This document shows positions 2-17,790 of a DNA stretch of 64,000 bases, piece by piece (positions within the stretch are counted from its first letter, which is position 1; every line of letters starts with the position of its first letter). The position numbers were made by a program, and so were the translations under genes. The notes beneath the pieces were generated by a model, which saw only the letters and a list, made by a program, of their open reading frames with translations, was not told the origin of the DNA and searched no databases. Source of the stretch: a virus. Where the stretch lies: IMG/VR virus record IMGVR_UViG_3300042887_005324, positions 1 through 64,000 of that record. The stretch is one strand, 5' to 3'.

Positions 2-502
2 TCACAACAAATTGATAAATTAATTGAAGAAGCTAGAAAACGTAAAGTTTCTGAAACTAACGATACACACTTCTTGAAATTCTTAAACAAGTCTCAAGTT
101 GATAGCTATTGGAGCTTGACAACTGAGGAACAAGAACAAGTAAAACTTTACATAAACGAAAGAAGTTATTTTACAAGTTCTGATGTGTTAAAGATGATCA
201 CAGAAGCTTTATCTGTTAAAAATGAATCTCTAGAAGAGAGATTGATTAGATTGATGCCTGAAAACATTAAGCCAATCTGGTCACAAATGAATGAGTCTTC
301 AAAGAAGTCTATCTTGTCTCAAGCTAGATTGTACCCAGACTTAACAACTGAAGCAAAGGTTGAACATTTCTGGTTAACAAGACCATTCAAGAAAAACGAA
401 TCTGTTACTAAGAAATTAGTTGAACATAACGCATTGATTCAAGAAGACAAAGTGTCTGAGAACGAAATGACTGCGATTATGGAAAGATTCAAAAATCTTT
501 AA
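2..502 (+). CDS. Prohead core/scaffold protein (T4 gp22-like), 3' part; frame is open to the left window edge
   Basis: Frame is open from base 2 and lies directly upstream of the major capsid gene. Protein is charged and helical, with several (I/K/M)NE-S/R putative prohead-protease sites. Confidence 0.65.
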   Translation, partial: SQQIDKLIEEARKRKVSETNDTHFLKFLNKSQVDSYWSLTTEEQEQVKLYINERSYFTSSDVLKMITEALSVKNESLEERLIRLMPENIKPIWSQMNESSKKSILSQARLYPDLTTEAKVEHFWLTRPFKKNESVTKKLVEHNALIQEDKVSENEMTAIMERFKNL

Positions 503-503
503 T

Positions 504-553
504 CTATAAAAAATCCACCCTTTGAAAAATAAAATTTTCCAGGATCATATATA
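504..553 (+). promoter_or_regulatory. Capsid-gene upstream element (CTATAAAAAATCCACCCTTTGAAAAAT...TCATATATA)
   Basis: A near-identical copy lies at 44985-45034; the element ends in the ATATATA core seen before many genes. Confidence 0.55.
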
Positions 554-588
554 GATATAAGATACACAAAAAAAAATAAAAAAAAATT

Positions 589-2349
589 ATGTCACACATT
601 AGAATAGACAAAAACAAAGCATTGAAGAAGTGGTCTCCAGTATTAGAGAACATGGGTGTTTCTGGTGAGGAAAGACTTGATTGGATGTCTGAGTACGCAG
701 AATTCCACTCTATCAATGAGAACGCTTATGTGAACGCAGCTAACGCTGGTATGGGTGCAGTTACTTCACCACAACCATCTGTATATGCTGGTTCTAACGC
801 TTATACTTCTACAAGTACAACTATCAATAACTTCGGTAACGCTGGTTCTGGAGATTTAGGACAAAACTTGTTACCAGTAGCTATGAAAATTGCTGCTCAA
901 ACAATCGGTCTTGATTTAGTTGCTGTAAAACCTTCTCCAGGTCCAAAATTAGATTTGTTGTATATCGACTTTCAATATGATGATGTTGATACTACACAAG
1001 GTCAGCCATTAGTATTCAAATATAGTGATGGTGCTGCTAATGATGCAAGTATTGCTGCTGCAATCAGAGCAATTTCTGGTTTTTCAACTAACATCACTGA
1101 AACAGTTGGTGGATATAGAGCTACAACTTCAGGTAACTTATCTTACAGAGTATGGGTTGCTTTGAATGCTGCTGGTGCAGCTTCAACCGGTCTTAATATT
1201 TCAACTGGTGTTGTTGGTACAAGTGTTAACCCAACTTCTTATGAGGGTGTTGCTGAATTCTTGGGATTCTCTCGTATCGATGGTCTTCCAATTTTCAGAG
1301 CTTACAGACAATCCAATGCTGTTGGTAACTACAATGGTTCTACACCATACGCTGCTCCTTATGTATTTACACAAGCTCAAAACACTTTCACTCCAACAGC
1401 TTCTGTTGCAGCTCAGTGTTCAGCTGTTGCTGGTGTTTCTACTGGTACTGATGGTACAGTTACTTTGATTTCAGCTTTAGAAGATCACCTTCCAGGTTTT
1501 TCTTCAAACTTCTCTACAAATTCTCAGAATGGTAGATACCCAATGAGTCGTGCTGAAGATGATCAATCATATGCTGGTGTAATCGGACCAAAAGTTTCTA
1601 CTAAGTCTATCGCAGTTGGTACTATCGAAGTATCTTCAGCTCTTAGAAGAACTGAAATCGAGGATATCAAAGCTAACACAGGTATGGATATCGTTCAAAA
1701 GATGGAGTCTATCCTTGTTAACGAATTGTCTCAAACAATTTCTAAGCAAATCGTTGCTAAGATCTTTGAAATGGGTGATTTGAACAGAGCATCTGCTCCA
1801 CTTGGTGGAACTGGTTCTATCACAAGTCAGACTATCTTCGACTTAGATACTGCTTATGTAAATGTTGGCCCAGGTGGTGAAACTACTCACGCTGTTCAAC
1901 GTAAGTTGATCACTAAGATGGTTCACGCTTCTAACTACATTGCTACTGAAGGTCGTGTAGGTCCAGCTCAATACGCTGTAACAAACGGAGGTTTAGCTGC
2001 AGCTATGATGGACATCGCTGGTTATACTATTAACCCAACTAAATCTAAAATCAACGGTTCTGGTCAATTGTATCCAGTTGGTCAAATCGGTGATATCCAA
2101 ATTTATGTTGATCCATATTTGAGATATAACGATAACCGTATCGTTTTAGGTAGAAAGAATAACCCAGATCAACCAGGTATCATTTTCGTACCTTATTTGA
2201 TGGCTCAATCTATCAGCATCATCTCTGAAGCAACTTTCGCTCCAAGAATGTTACTTCGTTCAAGATATGCAGTTGCTGAAGTTGGTTGGTTCCCACAAAA
2301 GCAATATATGACTATTGTTACTAAAGATGCTTCTGGTTATCTTAACTAA
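589..2349 (+). CDS. gp23: Major capsid protein, T4 gp23-like
   Basis: N-terminal KWSPVLE, DLVAVKP, ESILVNELS, YVDPY, PGIIFVPY and PRMLLRSRY motifs of the gp23 family; biased high-expression codon use; HSINE/N putative maturation site. Confidence 0.93.
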   Translation: MSHIRIDKNKALKKWSPVLENMGVSGEERLDWMSEYAEFHSINENAYVNAANAGMGAVTSPQPSVYAGSNAYTSTSTTINNFGNAGSGDLGQNLLPVAMKIAAQTIGLDLVAVKPSPGPKLDLLYIDFQYDDVDTTQGQPLVFKYSDGAANDASIAAAIRAISGFSTNITETVGGYRATTSGNLSYRVWVALNAAGAASTGLNISTGVVGTSVNPTSYEGVAEFLGFSRIDGLPIFRAYRQSNAVGNYNGSTPYAAPYVFTQAQNTFTPTASVAAQCSAVAGVSTGTDGTVTLISALEDHLPGFSSNFSTNSQNGRYPMSRAEDDQSYAGVIGPKVSTKSIAVGTIEVSSALRRTEIEDIKANTGMDIVQKMESILVNELSQTISKQIVAKIFEMGDLNRASAPLGGTGSITSQTIFDLDTAYVNVGPGGETTHAVQRKLITKMVHASNYIATEGRVGPAQYAVTNGGLAAAMMDIAGYTINPTKSKINGSGQLYPVGQIGDIQIYVDPYLRYNDNRIVLGRKNNPDQPGIIFVPYLMAQSISIISEATFAPRMLLRSRYAVAEVGWFPQKQYMTIVTKDASGYLN

Positions 2350-2490: not shown

Positions 2491-3153
2491 ATGTCAAAAC
2501 CTTATTTCAAAATTAACTCAGTAACATATTCAAACAGTAATTTGACTGTAAGATATGATTTCGGTAGAACAAGAGGTTCAGTAGATGGTAATAATATTAT
2601 AGAGATCGATGGTTTTTCAGGTTCTCAGACATTTACTGAAAATAACAGATACGGATTTAATGAAGTCCAATCGATAACTATTGGTGCTCTTGGTACTTCA
2701 TCTACGGCTGGATATACTGATCCTAGTTCACTGACTTGGACTTTTGGTGGTACAGTTTCAAATCAAACTAACGCTAAACCAACACTTGGAACACATCAAT
2801 TGGTTTCCTACACAGCTTCGGCTGCACAGACTCTATCAGACTTTTTATCTGGATTGGCAACTTCAGTGAATACGAGTTCAGTGAATACTAAGGGTATAAT
2901 CGCATCGACCACATCAACAACAATCACTTTTGCGGCTTCAAACACTGGTAATTTATACAATAACACACAATTATTTATGAATCTTACTAGAGGTGGTACA
3001 AGTGTGATTGGTACTTCAAGTGTTGGAGTAACAAATAGTGCTACGTACTCAGGTGGTGTTACAACATATAATGTTGAAATATCTATACCTGCAGTTGGTG
3101 GATATGCTTCAAGATATTCGATTTCATCGAATACAGCATCTGTATTATTATAA
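2491..3153 (+). CDS. Probable virion structural protein (head decoration-like), Ser/Thr/Gly-rich
   Basis: Follows the capsid gene; TTAATATATA at 2454-2463; beta-rich composition. Confidence 0.5.
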   Translation: MSKPYFKINSVTYSNSNLTVRYDFGRTRGSVDGNNIIEIDGFSGSQTFTENNRYGFNEVQSITIGALGTSSTAGYTDPSSLTWTFGGTVSNQTNAKPTLGTHQLVSYTASAAQTLSDFLSGLATSVNTSSVNTKGIIASTTSTTITFAASNTGNLYNNTQLFMNLTRGGTSVIGTSSVGVTNSATYSGGVTTYNVEISIPAVGGYASRYSISSNTASVLL

Positions 3154-3172
3154 CTAATCTAAAAAAAATATT

Positions 3173-3199
3173 AAAACCCTCATTTAATGAGGGTTTTTT
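3173..3199. terminator. Bidirectional terminator
   Basis: AAAACCCTCAT-TTA-ATGAGGGTTTTTT between convergent genes. Confidence 0.8.
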
Positions 3200-3963
3200 A
3201 TTTTATACTTGTTTAGAATCCAGATGTTCCTATTGCCGAATTGTTGTTTGTGACAGTCTTTTTTATTACCATAGAATTTTAACCAGTTGTCAATATTACT
3301 TTTTTGAAATGGATTGACCCAATCTCTTAACTCACCTCCACCGAAAGAGTATGACTCTTCACAACAGGTTTTAATTAAAATGAGCAAACTTTCAACTTCT
3401 TTTTTACTTAGTGTATTGAATGATAAAAAAGGATTTAAATCAGATCTTCCAAGTATTTCTGCTGTTAAATATGCTCCTATTCCATTGAAGTACTTTTGAT
3501 TAAGCAAAACCTCACACAAGTTTTTTTTGAAAACTGGTTTGTCTATATTATCAAATATATTTTTTCTAAAAAGTTCATATTCTCTAACTGGGTCAGGTCC
3601 TCTTTTTGTTCCAGTAAATGGTTTATTCACTGAATATTTTGGACCCATATATCCACCATGTAATATTAAAGAATATCCTTGTGAATCATCAAGTCTCAGT
3701 CTAATATAATTGGTGTTATTCCATTCTGAAGTTGGTACATATTTCCAATTTCCATTCATTCCCATGAATACATAAATTTCATAATTATCAATGTGAATTT
3801 TCAATTCTTTTCCTCTTGATGATGAATTTATCGTGAATTCATGATCAATAAAAAGACTCGGTACATTCCCTTTTGCTACATGATAAGCTTTTATGAATTT
3901 TTTATTAGTAGATTTCTCATTTATAAAATCTGACATTATTCTAACTTCCGATAGTTCTGGCAT
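3184..3963 (-). CDS. Fpg/Nei-family DNA glycosylase/AP lyase, NEIL1-like, no zinc finger
   Basis: N-terminal MPELSEV (catalytic Pro2/Glu3), RGKEL, GMNG, H2TH LLNQKYFNGIGAYLTAEIL. Confidence 0.9.
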   Translation of the reverse strand: MPELSEVRIMSDFINEKSTNKKFIKAYHVAKGNVPSLFIDHEFTINSSSRGKELKIHIDNYEIYVFMGMNGNWKYVPTSEWNNTNYIRLRLDDSQGYSLILHGGYMGPKYSVNKPFTGTKRGPDPVREYELFRKNIFDNIDKPVFKKNLCEVLLNQKYFNGIGAYLTAEILGRSDLNPFLSFNTLSKKEVESLLILIKTCCEESYSFGGGELRDWVNPFQKSNIDNWLKFYGNKKDCHKQQFGNRNIWILNKYKIKNPH

Positions 3964-4586: not shown

Positions 4587-4760
4587 ATGAATAATTTGTT
4601 CAAATCTACTCCTGGTTTGTCTAAAAAAGATTTAAGATTACTTAGAGAAAAGTTTGTTAATCAATATATTAGAGAGAAAAATTGGAATAAAGATAAGCTA
4701 ACACCAAGTCAATTACTTGAGATAGTGGAGAATTCTTTATATAAAGATCCACAGCCTTAA
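4587..4760 (+). CDS. Small hypothetical protein, 57 aa (MNNLFKSTPGLSKKDLRLLREKFVNQY...), absent from the ORF track
   Basis: ATG at 4587 to TAA at 4758-4760; fills an intergenic gap; AATATATA motif upstream. Confidence 0.65.
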   Translation: MNNLFKSTPGLSKKDLRLLREKFVNQYIREKNWNKDKLTPSQLLEIVENSLYKDPQP

Positions 4761-5836
4761 AAAATATCTTCTGTAATATTCTCCTTTAGATGTGAATATG
4801 GAATATTTTCTAAACTTGGTAAAAAATTTATTAAGTCTGACCTAGTTCCAACGAAGGAATACTGACTATCACCTTCTTCTTGACAATAGCAGTTTCTACC
4901 ATCCCAATATACATATTCTGGGCAGTATCCTTTTTGTGAAAGAACTTCTTCGATCTCATATTGTTCTTTTTCTATCCAAGATTTCGAAATGAACATTTTT
5001 TTAGTATTATCATTCTCGATAATATTAGTGTAATAAGTCTCCTTAAAATCATCACTTTTTTTCTTTATTTCATCGTCGTCCTCATCATCCCACCCAGGAT
5101 AGTCTATATCATTATCTCCTGGAATTCTAACTACTGGTAATGTTTCCCAATCAATTTTAACACAAGCTTGACATAGTTTAGCCAGGTATTCAATGTCTTG
5201 AATTTCATCAGTTGTGTGTTCATTATAGTATCCAACAGATATATTTGTACATTCTGGCACAATATCTGTGAACTGAGCAGAGTCTGTCATAATACCTGTG
5301 TTATCTGGTGATAAATTGAGACCTAGTCCGGTTGAATTTAGCCTATAAGAAAGTAATTCAGCGAATTCATTTGAACAACATCTACCATATAATTGATGTG
5401 TAATAACAGAGGTTGTTCCTCTTCTATCAAATGAAATGACCTTTGTGATATTAGGCCAGTCAAATCCACTTGAAAGTTCGCTGCTACCAATACATCCAAC
5501 TTCTTCTCCTATAAAGAAGTAGTAAAGACCAGGTATATTTTTTTCAATCATATAAAGAAGAACTACTAGTCCAGCTTTATCATCTGCTCCAAGTATAGTT
5601 TTTCCGTCAGTACCAATTAAATTATTTTCATGTATATGAACAACATTTTTACGATATGAACAAGCCGTATCTAAATGACACGTGAACATAGTAGTGAAAC
5701 CATCACCAATAGTTAGGAAAAAGTTACCAAATTCATCCATTTGTGTTCCTTTAGGAAGAAACTTTATCATTCTATATTCATTTCCATAAGGAATTGTTTG
5801 TTTTGTAAGTTGTAGAAATTTTCTTCGTATTCTCAT
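4757..5836 (-). CDS. M28/M20-like zinc peptidase/amidohydrolase (paralogue 1)
   Basis: HLDT, LGADDKAG, GEEVG, SFDRR, TDSA and NISVGYYNEH metal-binding motifs. Confidence 0.85.
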   Translation of the reverse strand: MRIRRKFLQLTKQTIPYGNEYRMIKFLPKGTQMDEFGNFFLTIGDGFTTMFTCHLDTACSYRKNVVHIHENNLIGTDGKTILGADDKAGLVVLLYMIEKNIPGLYYFFIGEEVGCIGSSELSSGFDWPNITKVISFDRRGTTSVITHQLYGRCCSNEFAELLSYRLNSTGLGLNLSPDNTGIMTDSAQFTDIVPECTNISVGYYNEHTTDEIQDIEYLAKLCQACVKIDWETLPVVRIPGDNDIDYPGWDDEDDDEIKKKSDDFKETYYTNIIENDNTKKMFISKSWIEKEQYEIEEVLSQKGYCPEYVYWDGRNCYCQEEGDSQYSFVGTRSDLINFLPSLENIPYSHLKENITEDIF

Positions 5837-12535: not shown

Positions 12536-13912
12536 ATGAAAAAGACTTATTTTACCCCTGGTGTTGTTGAGATTTTTAATAAATTAAAAAGTGCACCAGC
12601 ATTCAAAGAATTGATTCTGAAGTTAGAAGAAGCAACTAAATTACCTGGTGATAAAATTGAATTTTCCGTAAGTAAATATGACCTTTCAAAACCTATTATC
12701 AAGAATATTTTAGGACCAGACGCATTTAGTGATAGTTTGATAGATGAGTTTATGAGAACTTTCAAGTTCAAAGTAGATGACATTGATAGAGGATATAAAT
12801 CAACTACAACCTATACGTCATCAGCAACAACTGGAAGTGCACCTTTCAAGAAAACTGTTAGCCAACCAGCTAAACCTCAAAGAATTTTCAAAGAAGAAGA
12901 TTATATCACACCAAGAGAATTTAAATTTGAACCCAATAATATTAGAGAGACATTTATTTCACTAGTCACTGAAACTTATCCTATGGGACATGAGGATGAG
13001 GTTGTTAAATATATCACACCTGGTCTAAAAAAAGACCAACATGGAAATTACTATACTATTATTGGAGATTCCGACACATCTTTTACTTGTCATTTAGATA
13101 CTGCTTCTAGAACTAAAGAAAAGATTAAATTAGTTCAGTATAAAAAAGATGGACAAGATTTCATAATGAGTGATGGTACCACTATTTTAGGAGCTGATGA
13201 TAAATCCGGTGTTGCTATATTGATGTATATGATACATCATAATGTACCAGGTGTTTATTGGTTCTTCATGGGTGAAGAAAGAGGCGGTGTTGGTTCAGGA
13301 AAAGTTGCTAATGATATTGAAAGTTATCCTTTTATGTCAAAAATTAAGAAAATGGTTTCATTCGACAGAAGAAACTATTATTCAGTAATCACATCACAAT
13401 TTGGAACTGTTTGTTGTTCAAATGAATTTGGTGATTCTTTGTGTAAAGAACTAAATAAGAGTGGATTAAAATTAAATTTAGATCCAACTGGTGTTTTTAC
13501 GGATTCTGCTAACTTTATAGATATTATACCAGAGTGTACGAATGTTTCAGTTGGTTATTTTAATGAACACACTTCTGAAGAGCTACAAAATATTACATAT
13601 TTAGAGAGATTAGCAAAAGCATGTGTTGCATGTGACTGGGATAAACTAGCTATTAAAAGAAAAGTAGGATTTGATGAGGATATCAAAAGTAAATATTTTA
13701 GATTGATCAAACAATTCAATAGAACTGTATTCTTTAACAAAGACTCTATAAAAGGCGTTGACGGTAAATTATTAATCAATTTAGAAGTTGATAGTAGCGA
13801 TCCTGATCATTTATATGAAGATTTAACATCATTACAAAAACTATTTTCACAACATAGATTAGATCCAGATATTTTGTTTGAAGGTGATAAAATAAAAATT
13901 GAACTTACATAA
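12536..13912 (+). CDS. M28/M20-like zinc peptidase (paralogue 2) with N- and C-terminal extensions
   Basis: HLDT, LGADDKSG, GEERG, SFDRR, TDSA, NVSVGYFNEH; clear homology to 4757-5836. Confidence 0.85.
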   Translation: MKKTYFTPGVVEIFNKLKSAPAFKELILKLEEATKLPGDKIEFSVSKYDLSKPIIKNILGPDAFSDSLIDEFMRTFKFKVDDIDRGYKSTTTYTSSATTGSAPFKKTVSQPAKPQRIFKEEDYITPREFKFEPNNIRETFISLVTETYPMGHEDEVVKYITPGLKKDQHGNYYTIIGDSDTSFTCHLDTASRTKEKIKLVQYKKDGQDFIMSDGTTILGADDKSGVAILMYMIHHNVPGVYWFFMGEERGGVGSGKVANDIESYPFMSKIKKMVSFDRRNYYSVITSQFGTVCCSNEFGDSLCKELNKSGLKLNLDPTGVFTDSANFIDIIPECTNVSVGYFNEHTSEELQNITYLERLAKACVACDWDKLAIKRKVGFDEDIKSKYFRLIKQFNRTVFFNKDSIKGVDGKLLINLEVDSSDPDHLYEDLTSLQKLFSQHRLDPDILFEGDKIKIELT

Positions 13913-14378: not shown

Positions 14379-14434
14379 TCTAAACTTTTTGTTTTTTTCA
14401 AATAATATATATATCTTTGTAAGATAATTAACAC

Positions 14435-14787: not shown

Positions 14788-14820
14788 CAAAAACTCAACC
14801 AAATGGTTGAGTTTTTTTTT
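14788..14820 (+). terminator. Terminator after tmRNA
   Basis: AAAAACTCAACCA-AA-TGGTTGAGTTTTTTTT. Confidence 0.85.
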
Positions 14821-14922: not shown

Positions 14923-15879
14923 ATGGCGTGTATTTCATACTTTGGAGGTAAATCCTCAAATGTTTTTCAAGAGTTTATTAATAAAAAAATACCAAAATCT
15001 GGTATAAAAACCTACTTAGAACCATTTAGTGGAAGTATGGGTACATATATGGATGATGATAGTCTTAAATTTGATACAGTTATTTATAATGATAAAAATC
15101 GTCACCAAGTGAATCTTTATAAATGTTGTTCTGAACCAGAGAAGTTCATTCCGTATTTAGAGTCATTAACTCAACTTGGTGGATTACTACACACATCTGA
15201 AACTGAACCACTAAAAAAGTGGGATTTCTATAAAGGAATCTATAAGCAATATCAAAAAAATGATTTTCTTGATAATATGAATTTTGAGATAGGTGATTTT
15301 GAAAAGGCTGCCATTTACGCATTTTTGATTACATCAGCTCACAATTCAGTCTATCCAAGAGGAGCGGGCTTCAATGGATATAAAAAAGATAAAGATCGAC
15401 TAAAATTGGAAGTCCTAATTTCTAAATTGAAGAAAAACACTTATACTGATAAGCTACAATCAATTACTGGATTCTATAACGAAGACTTCGAAGACTTGAT
15501 ATTAAAGTATGATTCAGAAGAAACATATTTATACTTAGATCCACCATACGCAAGATTTGATGAAGCAAAAGGTGATGATGATGCTAAGCGACTTTTTTGG
15601 TACGGTGCTGATCAAGATGGCGTATTTGGACCAGCATCACATAGAAGATTATTAGAAAGACTCAAAACTATCAAATCTCGTTGGTCACTTTCTTATTACT
15701 ACTTTCCACTATTAGAGGAATTATTACCAAGAAACGAGTATATTTGGACACAAAAAGAAGTCTTTAGAAGTTCCGCTCAAGGTGGTAATAACTCTGATGT
15801 AAAGAAAGAACAAGCTAAGGGAGTTGAGTTGTTGATTATGAATTATGATCCAATCACTGGTGAAAAATTAAACAAGTAA
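14923..15879 (+). CDS. DNA adenine methyltransferase, Dam/D12 class
   Basis: YFGGK, EPFSGS (motif I), YND, DPPY (motif IV), ELLIMNY. Confidence 0.9.
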   Translation: MACISYFGGKSSNVFQEFINKKIPKSGIKTYLEPFSGSMGTYMDDDSLKFDTVIYNDKNRHQVNLYKCCSEPEKFIPYLESLTQLGGLLHTSETEPLKKWDFYKGIYKQYQKNDFLDNMNFEIGDFEKAAIYAFLITSAHNSVYPRGAGFNGYKKDKDRLKLEVLISKLKKNTYTDKLQSITGFYNEDFEDLILKYDSEETYLYLDPPYARFDEAKGDDDAKRLFWYGADQDGVFGPASHRRLLERLKTIKSRWSLSYYYFPLLEELLPRNEYIWTQKEVFRSSAQGGNNSDVKKEQAKGVELLIMNYDPITGEKLNK

Positions 15880-16490
15880 TGAGTAATAAAAGAGGCCGAA
15901 AAGGTCCTAAATATACAACACACGAAGAAGATAAAAGACTTGTTCTTTTAGCAATAAGTGGAGATTATAATGCTTATAACATTTTACTTGAAAAGTATAA
16001 GCCAATACTCTACATAGCAGCTAAAAGAAGATTGTTTAATTATGATGAGGAAGACATAGAAGATATTGTTATGACAGTATTAGGTAATGCTTTTGTAAAA
16101 ATTAAACAATATGATCCAGAAAAAGCTAAATTTTTTTGGTGGATAGTTGCTTGCTTACACAATCATGTAAGTAATTTATACAAAAGAGATAAACTAATTA
16201 AGAGAGATAACTTTGTTTCACTAAGTAATTCTCCAATGATAGAAGTATATAGTGATGACTCTAATTTTTCTGAAGACTATGATAAAGAACAAACTTCTAA
16301 ATTAATAAGACTCTTAATAAGTAAATTACCAGAGGATCAATCTAAAGCAATAACTATGAGATATTTCAAAGATGCATCAAACGAAGAAATAGCTAAAGAG
16401 ATTGGATGTAAGCCTGATGAAGTATGGTATAGATTAAAAAAAGGAAGAGAGAAGTTAAAAAAATTGTCTATAAATGGTAAACTATTCTAA
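15879..16490 (+). CDS. ECF-type RNA polymerase sigma factor
   Basis: GD..AY..L...Y, EDIV, YDP..AKF..W (region 2); LPEDQ..AI.MRYF..S.EEIA.EIG (region 4). Confidence 0.88.
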   Translation: MSNKRGRKGPKYTTHEEDKRLVLLAISGDYNAYNILLEKYKPILYIAAKRRLFNYDEEDIEDIVMTVLGNAFVKIKQYDPEKAKFFWWIVACLHNHVSNLYKRDKLIKRDNFVSLSNSPMIEVYSDDSNFSEDYDKEQTSKLIRLLISKLPEDQSKAITMRYFKDASNEEIAKEIGCKPDEVWYRLKKGREKLKKLSINGKLF

Positions 16491-16491
16491 T

Positions 16492-16698
16492 ATGTATCCA
16501 CTACCTGGTCAAAAATATAAACATTATAAAGGTGGTACCTATGAGGTCATATCTATGGCTAATCATACAGAAACTAAAGAAGTTGTAGTTGTTTATAAGT
16601 CAATAAACTTTGGTTCTGTTTATGTTAGACCACTTGAAATTTGGAACTCAAAAACAGAAGATAATCAACAAAAATTTACATTAATTGATGGAAATTAA
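16492..16698 (+). CDS. DUF1653-family protein (start revised to ATG 16492)
   Basis: YKHYKGGTYEV...A.H.ET.E..VVY......YVRP...W. Confidence 0.8.
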   Translation: MYPLPGQKYKHYKGGTYEVISMANHTETKEVVVVYKSINFGSVYVRPLEIWNSKTEDNQQKFTLIDGN

Positions 16699-17362
16699 AT
16701 CAGAAATTTTTAATTTGGGTGTATTTAATAAAAATTTAAATCTTACACAAAATATAAAAGTCTCAATGGCTCTTCGAAAAGATGAGGTCAATGGGGAAAA
16801 AAATCATCTTAATTCTTTACTATCACAGGAAGCATCACAATTACTTCAAAAAAAGATTTTAGATGAAATGTCACAATCTAAAGAAGAATTTTTAGATGTT
16901 ATGAATTTATCAGAGTCAGATTCCATCAGTTTATTACATAATTACTTGTGTAGAAATGAATTTGAGTTTATTATAATGAGTAGTCAAATAGGTATGTTTG
17001 CTCAAGATAGTGTTCTTTTTACAACAAGTTCTATTGGTAATCAAAATAAATTAAATATTATAAATAGTAACACCTTTTATCATTTAGGGAAACTAGGTAA
17101 TATAGATTGTTATATTCATGCCTATAAAAAGTGTGATGATAAAGAATTAATCTGTGGAAAGAAGAACTGTTTCAATTATAATTATCGATTCGATGATATA
17201 AGGGAAGTCAACAAAACATCTATGGTTCCGAGAATATTAATCGAATTATATTATGATTTTATACTTGATACAAAAAAATTAGTTAATTTACACTTTGTAA
17301 ATGAAGATAATCCCAAATATAGACAATTTAATAGGGATAAAAAAATTGATGAATTATTATGA
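16688..17362 (+). CDS. Truncated, diverged paralogue of the major capsid protein C-terminal half
   Basis: Five collinear blocks align by eye with 589-2349, e.g. IKVSMALRKDE vs IEVSSALRRTE and FYHLGKLGNIDCYIHAY vs LYPVGQIGDIQIYVDPY. Confidence 0.65.
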   Translation: MEIKSEIFNLGVFNKNLNLTQNIKVSMALRKDEVNGEKNHLNSLLSQEASQLLQKKILDEMSQSKEEFLDVMNLSESDSISLLHNYLCRNEFEFIIMSSQIGMFAQDSVLFTTSSIGNQNKLNIINSNTFYHLGKLGNIDCYIHAYKKCDDKELICGKKNCFNYNYRFDDIREVNKTSMVPRILIELYYDFILDTKKLVNLHFVNEDNPKYRQFNRDKKIDELL

Positions 17363-17790
17363 TTGCAATTGGATCGGATCACGCTGGATTTGAAATGAAA
17401 ACAGCTATTATTAATTGGTTAGAAGAAAACGAATTAAATGTTACTGATTTCGGACCATATTCAACAGATAGTGTTGATTATCCAGACTACGCACATTCTG
17501 TTGTTGGTTCGATTTTAGATGAAGATAATGTTATTGGAATTCTGATTTGTGGTTCAGGTAATGGTATTTGTATGTCAGCTAATAAGTGGAGAGATATAAG
17601 AGCGGCTCTTTGTTGGAATAAAGAGATAGCTTCTTTATCTAGACAACATAATAATGCGAATGTTATTTGTTTACCGGCAAGATTTATATCTATTGAAGAG
17701 TCTATTGAAATTCTAGAAACTTTTTTAGAAACTGAATTTGAGGGTGGTCGCCATGAAAAAAGAGTTGATAAAATTAATCCTTCTTTTTAA
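17359..17790 (+). CDS. rpiB: Ribose-5-phosphate isomerase B
   Basis: IGSDHAG, DYPD, GILICGSGNG, SRQHNNANV, FEGGRH.RV. Confidence 0.96.
   Translation: MIAIGSDHAGFEMKTAIINWLEENELNVTDFGPYSTDSVDYPDYAHSVVGSILDEDNVIGILICGSGNGICMSANKWRDIRAALCWNKEIASLSRQHNNANVICLPARFISIEESIEILETFLETEFEGGRHEKRVDKINPSF

Follow-up and report, generated by a model that had tools for sequence, protein, structure and literature searches.

In the present study, we analysed a small gene, here called the mini gene, at positions 16688-17362 of a viral DNA window, which is the first 64 kb (positions 1 to 64,000) of the 174-kb viral record IMGVR_UViG_3300042887_005324 (G+C content 29%). We found that this gene arose by duplication of the phage's own gp23-type capsid gene and that its 224-residue product is a stand-alone core of the HK97 fold, made of the P and A domains. 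The mini protein has lost the propeptide, the N-arm, the outgoing E-loop strand and the insertion domain of the major capsid protein (MCP), and has gained a C-terminal helix with the sequence R-D-x-K-I-[DN]-x-I-L, which we call the handle. With a probability of about 0.4, we suggest that the mini protein acts off the capsid lattice, as a soluble look-alike of the capsid core that is docked by its handle to a partner common to many small phage proteins.

Descent from the major capsid protein

Common descent of the mini protein and the gp23-type MCPs is firmly established. A first-pass annotation, made from the letters of the DNA, had called the open reading frame (ORF) a truncated MCP paralogue because of five collinear pairs of similar blocks. 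All five pairs were present (MCP strings at nt 1624, 1702, 1969, 2068 and 2233 of ORF 589-2349; ORF string at 16754), they kept the same order in the profile-profile alignment, and the pairwise comparison with the window MCP that had been proposed as a check was significant (BLASTP E 3e-7, 25% identity, 79 aa; here and below, E-values from single-genome searches apply to that genome alone). A profile of 21 close homologues matched two collinear segments of the phage's own MCP (E 1.3e-8 and 2.3e-5), and hhalign of 96 family members against 18 MCPs gave a probability of 99.6% and an E-value of 3.7e-24 over 171 columns, in which mini residues 20-194 correspond to MCP 342-563. When the 21-member profile was run against 1.84 billion representatives, MCPs of 550-620 aa were matched at E ~1e-9. 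The homology is visible only at the profile level. Pfam Gp23 (PF07068) misses the mini protein: no match was obtained even at E≤1, and the protein is below the gathering threshold. Nothing was found in a Pfam search against any family, the PHROGs search gave a single marginal match, to the family of the MCP itself (E 0.019), and tblastn against 50,697 phage records gave zero matches. The profile returned only chance matches among PDB sequences (Bcl-2-related protein A1, E ~0.2), and the ESM Atlas feature search returned no usable match.

The mini family is real and widespread. The search of the 1.84 billion representatives yielded 263 clusters at E≤1e-3, and about 120 of the best 150 of these clusters are 195-260 aa long. 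The close homologues (n=20; 38-96% identity, 191-235 aa) come from lake metagenomes, the stretch that holds the mini gene recurs almost identically in at least 14 studies (2018-2025) of lake and freshwater metagenomes, and a lake-metagenome contig of 98% identity from a different study keeps the mini ORF unbroken. The ORF starts mechanically at TTG 16685; since the homologues begin with MEIKSE or MQINSE, ATG 16688 is the most likely start. In the less saturated pairwise comparisons, the ratio of nonsynonymous to synonymous substitution rates (dN/dS) of the mini gene was 0.26-0.41, which indicates purifying selection, and that of the flanking genes was 0.03-0.27. A pseudogene or chance ORF was rejected on the basis of conservation, constant length and dN/dS <0.5. 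The mini gene evolves faster than the surrounding genes: its dN exceeds the values for rpiB, DUF1653 and the methylase 2.5-3-fold for the same pairs of genomes, and the homologues in IMGVR_UViG_3300009155_000048 share 77% identity with the MCP and 50-54% with the mini protein.

The AlphaFold2 (AF2) model of the mini protein has a predicted local distance difference test (pLDDT) value of 83 and a predicted template modelling (pTM) score of 0.80. In the structural check that the first-pass annotation had advised, the model superposed on T4 gp23, T4 gp24 and HK97 gp5 (Table 1), in agreement with its proposal of an HK97/gp23 fold, and the shape search of the ESM Atlas reached a 632-aa Gp23-family cluster with a template modelling (TM) score of 0.76 over 203 residues. 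The protein keeps the returning E-loop strand, the spine helix, the A domain and the closing P-domain strands up to the last strand of the fold, that is, a P domain (long spine helix and long beta strands) and an A domain in HK97 topology. The first block shared with the MCP, to which the profile match of E 2.3e-5 belongs, is seen in the model as a strand (22-29) and a helix (39-63), with Glu49 conserved in 88% of 121 mini-family members. The strongest shared block fits the gp23 signature Y-x-x-G-x-x-G...Y-[VI]-D-P...D-D...G-[RK]-K...P-R, and Gly135 is conserved in 98% of mini-family members.

The N-arm and the extended E-loop hairpin of the HK97 fold are missing. The MCP alignment begins at MCP 342, and only ~20 residues, with one 5-residue helix, precede the returning E-loop strand. 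In comparison with the MCP, the propeptide, the N-arm, the outgoing E-loop strand, the insertion domain and an insertion of ~70 residues after the spine helix are absent. The statement that the protein lacks the whole N-terminal half is therefore right for the propeptide, the N-arm, the first E-loop strand and the insertion domain, while the HK97 core itself is complete; what had been called a truncated paralogue is an HK97-fold paralogue without the lattice-forming arms. A random C-terminal fragment of the MCP is ruled out by the complete core, which runs through the last strand. Because the N-arm and E-loop are missing, the mini protein would be assembly-incompetent, as judged from its sequence. 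A homo-oligomer prediction with four copies (alignment A1; score 0.00, mark 0.42) neither supports nor opposes self-association.

The MCP of the window shares 65-72% identity with its counterparts in LR745206 and LR756502, two uncultured phages of 634-642 kb, and ~30% with those of the Lak megaphages. Genomes of the LR745206, LR756502 and Lak type form the 'Mahaphage' clade, for which Bacteroidetes are the predicted hosts (PMC7162821). Since its MCP kin are Mahaphage-clade genomes, the 174-kb record is regarded as a fragment of a huge phage, and a gene missing from it may sit in the part that it lacks; the host is probably a member of the Bacteroidota.

The C-terminal handle and other capsid-derived pieces

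The helix of residues 210-224 lies outside all structural alignments, which stop at residue ~207. It is predicted to be amphipathic and contains the ending RDKKIDELL, which the first-pass annotation had pointed out and which is indeed the C-terminus of the mini protein. Constraint within the mini family is strongest in the handle: its Arg is the sole invariant column in the alignment of 96 diverse members, whose consensus C-terminus is Y-x-x-x-x-R-D-x-K-I-D-x-I-L.

The handle is shared with other proteins. We searched for it with the pattern R-[DE]-x-K-[ILV]-[DN]-x-[ILVMF]-[ILVMFT] and counted it as terminal within 8 residues of the C-terminus. Among the ORFs of at least 40 aa in the complete genome LR745206, the pattern occurred 50 times, 38 times within 8 residues of the stop and 12 times internally, and the reversed motif 0 times; some of the 12 internal handles lie at an apparent domain boundary. 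A strict DNA-level version of the pattern gave 15 matches in LR745206 versus 0 in the control, and zero matches in LR756504, LR756501, LR756500 and Lak-B1. The codons of the handle Arg differ (AGA, AGG, CGT, CGA), which argues for selection on the peptide and not on the DNA. The 38 terminal carriers represent ~4% of the ~890 genes of LR745206, with a median length of 110 aa and a median isoelectric point (pI) of 5.4; most are acidic and soluble (pI <6 in 26/38). Examples in LR745206.1 are 2-247(-), 1922-2254(-), 82176-82400(+), 571551-572561(-) and 611540-612946(-), and numerous carriers belong to rows of small genes that all read from one strand, at 611-634 kb and 1-28 kb. No carrier in LR745206 is larger than the mini capsid protein, which is also the carrier traced across many lineages. 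A Pfam search with ten handle carriers gave one weak match to a poly(A)-polymerase head, which is uninformative. The record of the window has three carriers, namely the mini gene and two ORFs of 139 and 87 aa (Table 1), two close relatives have 4 each, and the reversed motif was found 0 times everywhere. Among five complete genomes, a handle-bearing mini gene is present solely in the genome that has handles. Two other interpretations of the motif were discarded. As a prohead-protease site, the I-D-E of the window's clade fits the L/I-x-E rule of T4, and the Glu is unconserved elsewhere; the likeness to the tag of the phage transfer-messenger RNA (tmRNA; ...LRNNILK...) was too weak.

A second, complementary capsid-derived gene is present in LR745206. 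Its 157-aa product copies the propeptide and N-arm of the MCP and carries an internal handle, NRDRKIDSI, followed by a lysine/arginine-rich tail.

Several further pieces that resemble the MCP or the mini profile were observed in relatives. A 68-aa ORF similar to the final P-domain strands of the MCP (E 1.5e-9 within the genome) occurs at L043:1202-1408(-) and L042:1516-1722(+), and it is overlapped by an unrelated 157-aa ORF that ends in the handle LRDVKIDTLLK (L043:739-1212(-), L042:1712-2185(+)); a counterpart of 79 aa is present in LR745206 (255082-255243). Only the middle of the mini profile (~83-163) is matched by a 130-aa ORF at LR745206.1 105010-105252(+) (E 4e-8) and by a 191-aa ORF at LR756501.1 542578-542841(+) (E 6e-13). 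A second Gp23-like gene of 479 aa (LR756501.1 517255-518691(-)) is unique to LR756501. The ORFs upstream of the mini gene at L067:6163-6858, L070:358-1041 and L014:2351-3148 were considered as further paralogues, and no similarity was found. A gp24-like gene of ordinary size was not found with the MCP, Pfam Gp23 and family profiles in the 174-kb record, itself a fragment, or in 4/5 complete relatives; the candidate LR745206:222134 was rejected, as its weak Pfam match falls where two unrelated ORFs (440 and 418 aa) meet.

Operon and genomic context

The location of the mini gene in a non-structural operon, as first proposed, is upheld by its neighbours: Pfam identified the expected D12-class Dam methylase, ECF-type (extracytoplasmic function) sigma factor and RpiB, and a DUF1653 gene in addition. 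The end of the DUF1653 gene overlaps the start of the mini gene by 11 nt, and the start of RpiB overlaps the mini-gene stop by 4 nt. All five genes from methylase to RpiB overlap or abut, and no strong terminator lies between 14923 and 17790. A strong terminator with a 12-bp hairpin at 14789-14816, downstream of the tmRNA gene, marks the 5' boundary of this unit. The mini gene is probably co-transcribed with the methylase, sigma factor, DUF1653 and RpiB genes, and because the operon includes a sigma-factor gene, it is a reasonable inference from the gene order that the mini gene would be expressed before the late genes. The T4-type late promoter TATAAATA, which stands 35 nt before the methylase ATG, was set aside as a timing clue, since it is also found upstream of the helicase and Ro60-like genes. 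In one metatranscriptome library, which was not counted as evidence, short contigs covered the methylase gene and none the mini gene, and one contig joined the methylase to DUF1653 in a relative without the sigma gene.

Table 1. Coordinates of the mini gene, its neighbours, related features and structural superpositions. Unless another sequence is named, positions refer to the window; values of the structural alignments are given in the order reported.
Feature	Location	Strand	Evidence or remarks
Mini HK97-fold gene, 224 aa	16688..17362	+	start ATG 16688; stop codon 17360-17362
Returning E-loop strand and P-domain spine helix, residues ~20-67	16742..16885	+	first MCP-shared block (MCP ~342-392)
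Strongest MCP-shared block, residues ~119-190 (MCP 482-560)	17039..17254	+	BLASTP E 3e-7; profile E 1.3e-8
C-terminal helix past the HK97 fold, with handle R-D-K-K-I-D-E-L-L (17333-17359)	17312..17359	+	model helix 210-224
MCP, parent paralogue	589..2349	+	586 aa; Pfam Gp23 E 1.2e-25 (91 bits)
Dam-type methylase	14923..15879	+	Pfam
ECF-type sigma factor	15879..16490	+	Pfam
DUF1653 gene	16474..16698	+	Pfam PF07866 E 1e-17; probable start ATG 16492
RpiB (ribose-5-phosphate isomerase B)	17359..17790	+	Pfam LacAB_rpiB E 1.5e-57
Handle ORF, 139 aa	G000 102839-103258 (L118:3839-4258)	-	motif at end; no Pfam match
Handle ORF, 87 aa	G000 100511-100774 (L118:1511-1774)	-	motif 18 residues from end; no Pfam match
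Propeptide and N-arm copy, 157 aa	LR745206.1 291407-291880	+	61-66% identity to MCP residues 8-46, 92-123
T4 gp23, unexpanded head (7VRT)	model 5-207 to chain 105-521		structural alignment: 14.2; 3.3; 200
T4 gp24 (5VF3 chain a)			structural alignment: 12.4; 4.1; 195
T4 gp24 (1YUE)			structural alignment: 11.7
HK97 gp5	chain 124-383		structural alignment: 12.2

Part of this arrangement is conserved in relatives. DUF1653 immediately precedes the mini gene in L006-L013, L033 and L034, RpiB immediately follows it in L006-L012, L033, L034 and L067, and the DUF1653-mini-RpiB triad is still present in relatives whose mini protein has only ~33% identity, with methylase and sigma genes variably present. 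In one lineage (L012), two tandem mini copies (2511-3254 and 3247-3948) lie between DUF1653 and RpiB; the second copy matches the family with an hhalign E of 4e-24, and both keep the handle (RDTKIDKLF and RDIKIDELL). In LR745206, the methylase and a mini homologue of 243 aa are adjacent, in this order, and the MCP gene lies 5 kb upstream of the homologue. The relative in LR756500 has 313 aa and no tail motif; it stands between a DNA polymerase and a RecA/UvsX-like gene, 21 kb from the MCP. The mini gene was not found in the complete genomes LR756504 and Lak-B1 with the 21- and 96-member profiles, and these genomes have the same kind of MCP. The gene is patchily distributed among relatives.

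Other features of the window were also recorded. A conserved element, TAATCTATAAAAAATCCACC, is present upstream of the MCP gene in the window (500-588) and in LR745206, G001, LR756504, LR756501 and LR756500; next come an (A)ATATATA(G/A) box, ~30-45 nt from the MCP ATG, and a leader rich in A. Of all 7-mers upstream of genes, ATATATA shows the strongest enrichment (42/80 intergenic gaps here, 175/365 in LR745206), and it may represent a phage promoter class. A Bacteroidota-type TAnnTTTG box (TATCTTTG) is located at 14414-14421, upstream of the phage tmRNA. Immediately 3' of the MCP gene, a Ser/Thr/Gly-rich ORF of 220 aa without a PHROG match (2491-3153(+)) could be a capsid decoration protein. 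The ORFs at 4757-5836(-) and 12536-13912(+) are a pair of paralogues, both of which match the PHROG 'peptidase' family phrog_4191 (E 2e-71 and 2.5e-69).

Possible roles of the mini protein

The known uses of the HK97 fold are in capsid shells, vertex proteins and encapsulins. In the explanation that we prefer, the mini protein would not be a lattice subunit and would be produced from the non-structural operon as a soluble mimic of the capsid core. The handle would dock it to a partner that also receives dozens of small, mostly acidic phage proteins, and its capsid-like surface would engage a natural contact of the capsid protein; this contact may be the capsid protein itself, as subunit or capsomer, a factor that folds or assembles it, or a host protein able to recognise it. 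The presence of several capsid pieces with one tag fits mimicry or regulation better than a vertex role. Several observations weigh against this explanation. To our knowledge, every phage paralogue of an HK97-fold MCP with known function, such as T4 gp24, is a capsid component. The complete P and A domains would in principle permit capsomer-type contacts, and the mini gene is rather near to the MCP gene (5 kb in LR745206, 14 kb in the window). In addition, handle genes were not significantly enriched in host-type (TAnnTTTG) over MCP-type (ATATATA) promoters (5/12 vs 46/209, p 0.15). A variant in which the core itself is the hub is rather improbable: the mini protein would be a capsid-derived oligomer that gathers the handle proteins by helix-helix pairing, an intracellular scaffold or compartment made from a retired capsid gene, and the handle would be a phage-wide docking system for ~4% of the proteome, two capsid-protein pieces included.

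The mini protein may instead be a vertex (penton) or minor shell protein, the counterpart of T4 gp24 cut down to the P and A domains, with the holding arms supplied by neighbouring hexamers. We consider this doubtful, in spite of a good prior and of the fact that no other paralogue was found to fill the role. T4 gp24 (1YUE; 5VF3 chain a) is a protein of 427 aa with an N-arm, an E-loop and an insertion domain, and its gene stands beside gene 23. The mini protein differs from it and from gp23 (7VRT) by its 224 aa, the lack of all three elements, the C-terminal handle and a non-structural operon of metabolic and regulatory genes; at the distances given above for the window, LR745206 and LR756500, its gene is not in the head module beside the MCP gene. 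We know of no HK97 protein that is incorporated in a lattice without an N-arm and E-loop hairpin. A vertex role would leave unexplained both the handle common to ~38 small unrelated proteins and the paralogue made of the N-terminal capsid part only. The failure to find the mini gene in LR756504 and Lak-B1 also speaks against this role and is not decisive, because T4 gp24 can be bypassed (PMC3012670). Short metagenomic proteins of the Gp23 family (~285-345 aa) and short annotated head vertex proteins (e.g. Vibrio phage nt-1, 297 aa) are gp23 kin without the insertion domain, and the mini-family profile matches them at E 1e-11 to 1e-6. Unlike the mini protein, these pass Pfam Gp23 (E 1e-9 to 1e-23), have an MCP-type C-terminal segment and no handle, and none was found in the window phage or its complete relatives.

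It is unlikely, though with precedents, that the handle is an uncleaved C-terminal head-targeting signal and the mini protein one of many proteins loaded in the prohead and delivered with the DNA. In other viruses of the HK97 lineage, the scaffolding protein binds to the coat through a C-terminal helix, which favours such a signal, as does the presence of the motif on two capsid-derived proteins. The T4 capsid-targeting sequence, carried by the polymorphic internal proteins, is likewise one short conserved peptide on many unrelated small proteins of a gp23-type phage; it is N-terminal and cut by the prohead protease (PMC3012670), whereas the handle forms a helix 0-8 residues from the C-terminal end and has no conserved cleavage site, the Glu after I-D being found in a minority of carriers. 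The mostly acidic character of the carriers (pI <6 in 26/38) is a weak argument against head targeting, and so is the finding that carriers with their own upstream region show host-type promoter motifs at least as often as MCP-type ones; moreover, the operon of the mini gene is unlike a late operon.

The first-pass annotation had proposed that the protein is a decoy, which would bind and blunt a host capsid sensor of the CapRel or Lit type. This idea comes from the fact that capsid-triggered defences, such as CapRel SJ46 (PMC9712102) and Lit/Gol, recognise parts of HK97-fold capsid proteins. It is a special case of the off-lattice role that we prefer, and we give it little probability, as no positive support was obtained for it. 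It would agree with the retention of the most conserved capsid surface motifs, with a production that is probably earlier than that of the late genes, and with a gene that is fast-evolving, sporadic and sometimes duplicated, as counter-defence genes often are. Known capsid sensors, e.g. CapRel, become active when they bind the capsid protein (PMC9712102). A mimic made early would thus need to occupy the sensor and leave it silent, and would otherwise risk triggering it sooner. A decoy also leaves the handle unexplained; no defence sensor of the host (probably Bacteroidota) was identified, and no capsid-triggered system is linked to the window phage or its host.

Very improbable, in our judgment, is an encapsulin-like role as scaffold or stabiliser of the adjoining RpiB. 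The mini-RpiB pair, with overlapping stop and start codons, is kept down to ~33% mini identity, and truncated HK97 proteins next to sugar-phosphate enzymes are known: the Family 4 'A-domain encapsulins' (DUF1884, PF08967, 2PK8), which have been proposed as non-capsid partners of adjacent enzymes (Andreas and Giessen 2021, PMC8346489). These share with the mini protein a cut-down HK97 fold encoded beside enzymes; they consist of the A domain alone (~100 aa) and are found in hyperthermophilic archaea and a few Bacteroidetes, whereas the mini protein is phage-encoded, has 224 aa with P and A domains, a spine helix and P-domain strands, and bears a handle, so it does not belong to Family 4. No RpiB stands beside the relatives in LR745206, LR756500, L013 and L014, so that the scaffold role fails outside one clade, and the window RpiB has no handle (the motif scan of the whole record gave three carriers only). 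Encapsulins of Families 1-3 keep the E-loop and an N-terminal helix, form closed shells and have the tag on the cargo and not on the shell protein; the mini protein resembles them in fold, with no sequence relationship beyond it.

The role of the mini protein is apparently undescribed, and the set of handle-bearing Mahaphage-type proteins is undescribed. If the protein were a penton after all, no smaller lattice-forming HK97 protein would be known, and the N-arm and E-loop would be dispensable at vertices. As an off-lattice protein, a phage-encoded stand-alone P and A core, long kept outside the head module, would be a further use of the HK97 fold. The partner of the handle, if found, could explain a sizeable share of the 'dark' small genes in the largest known phages.
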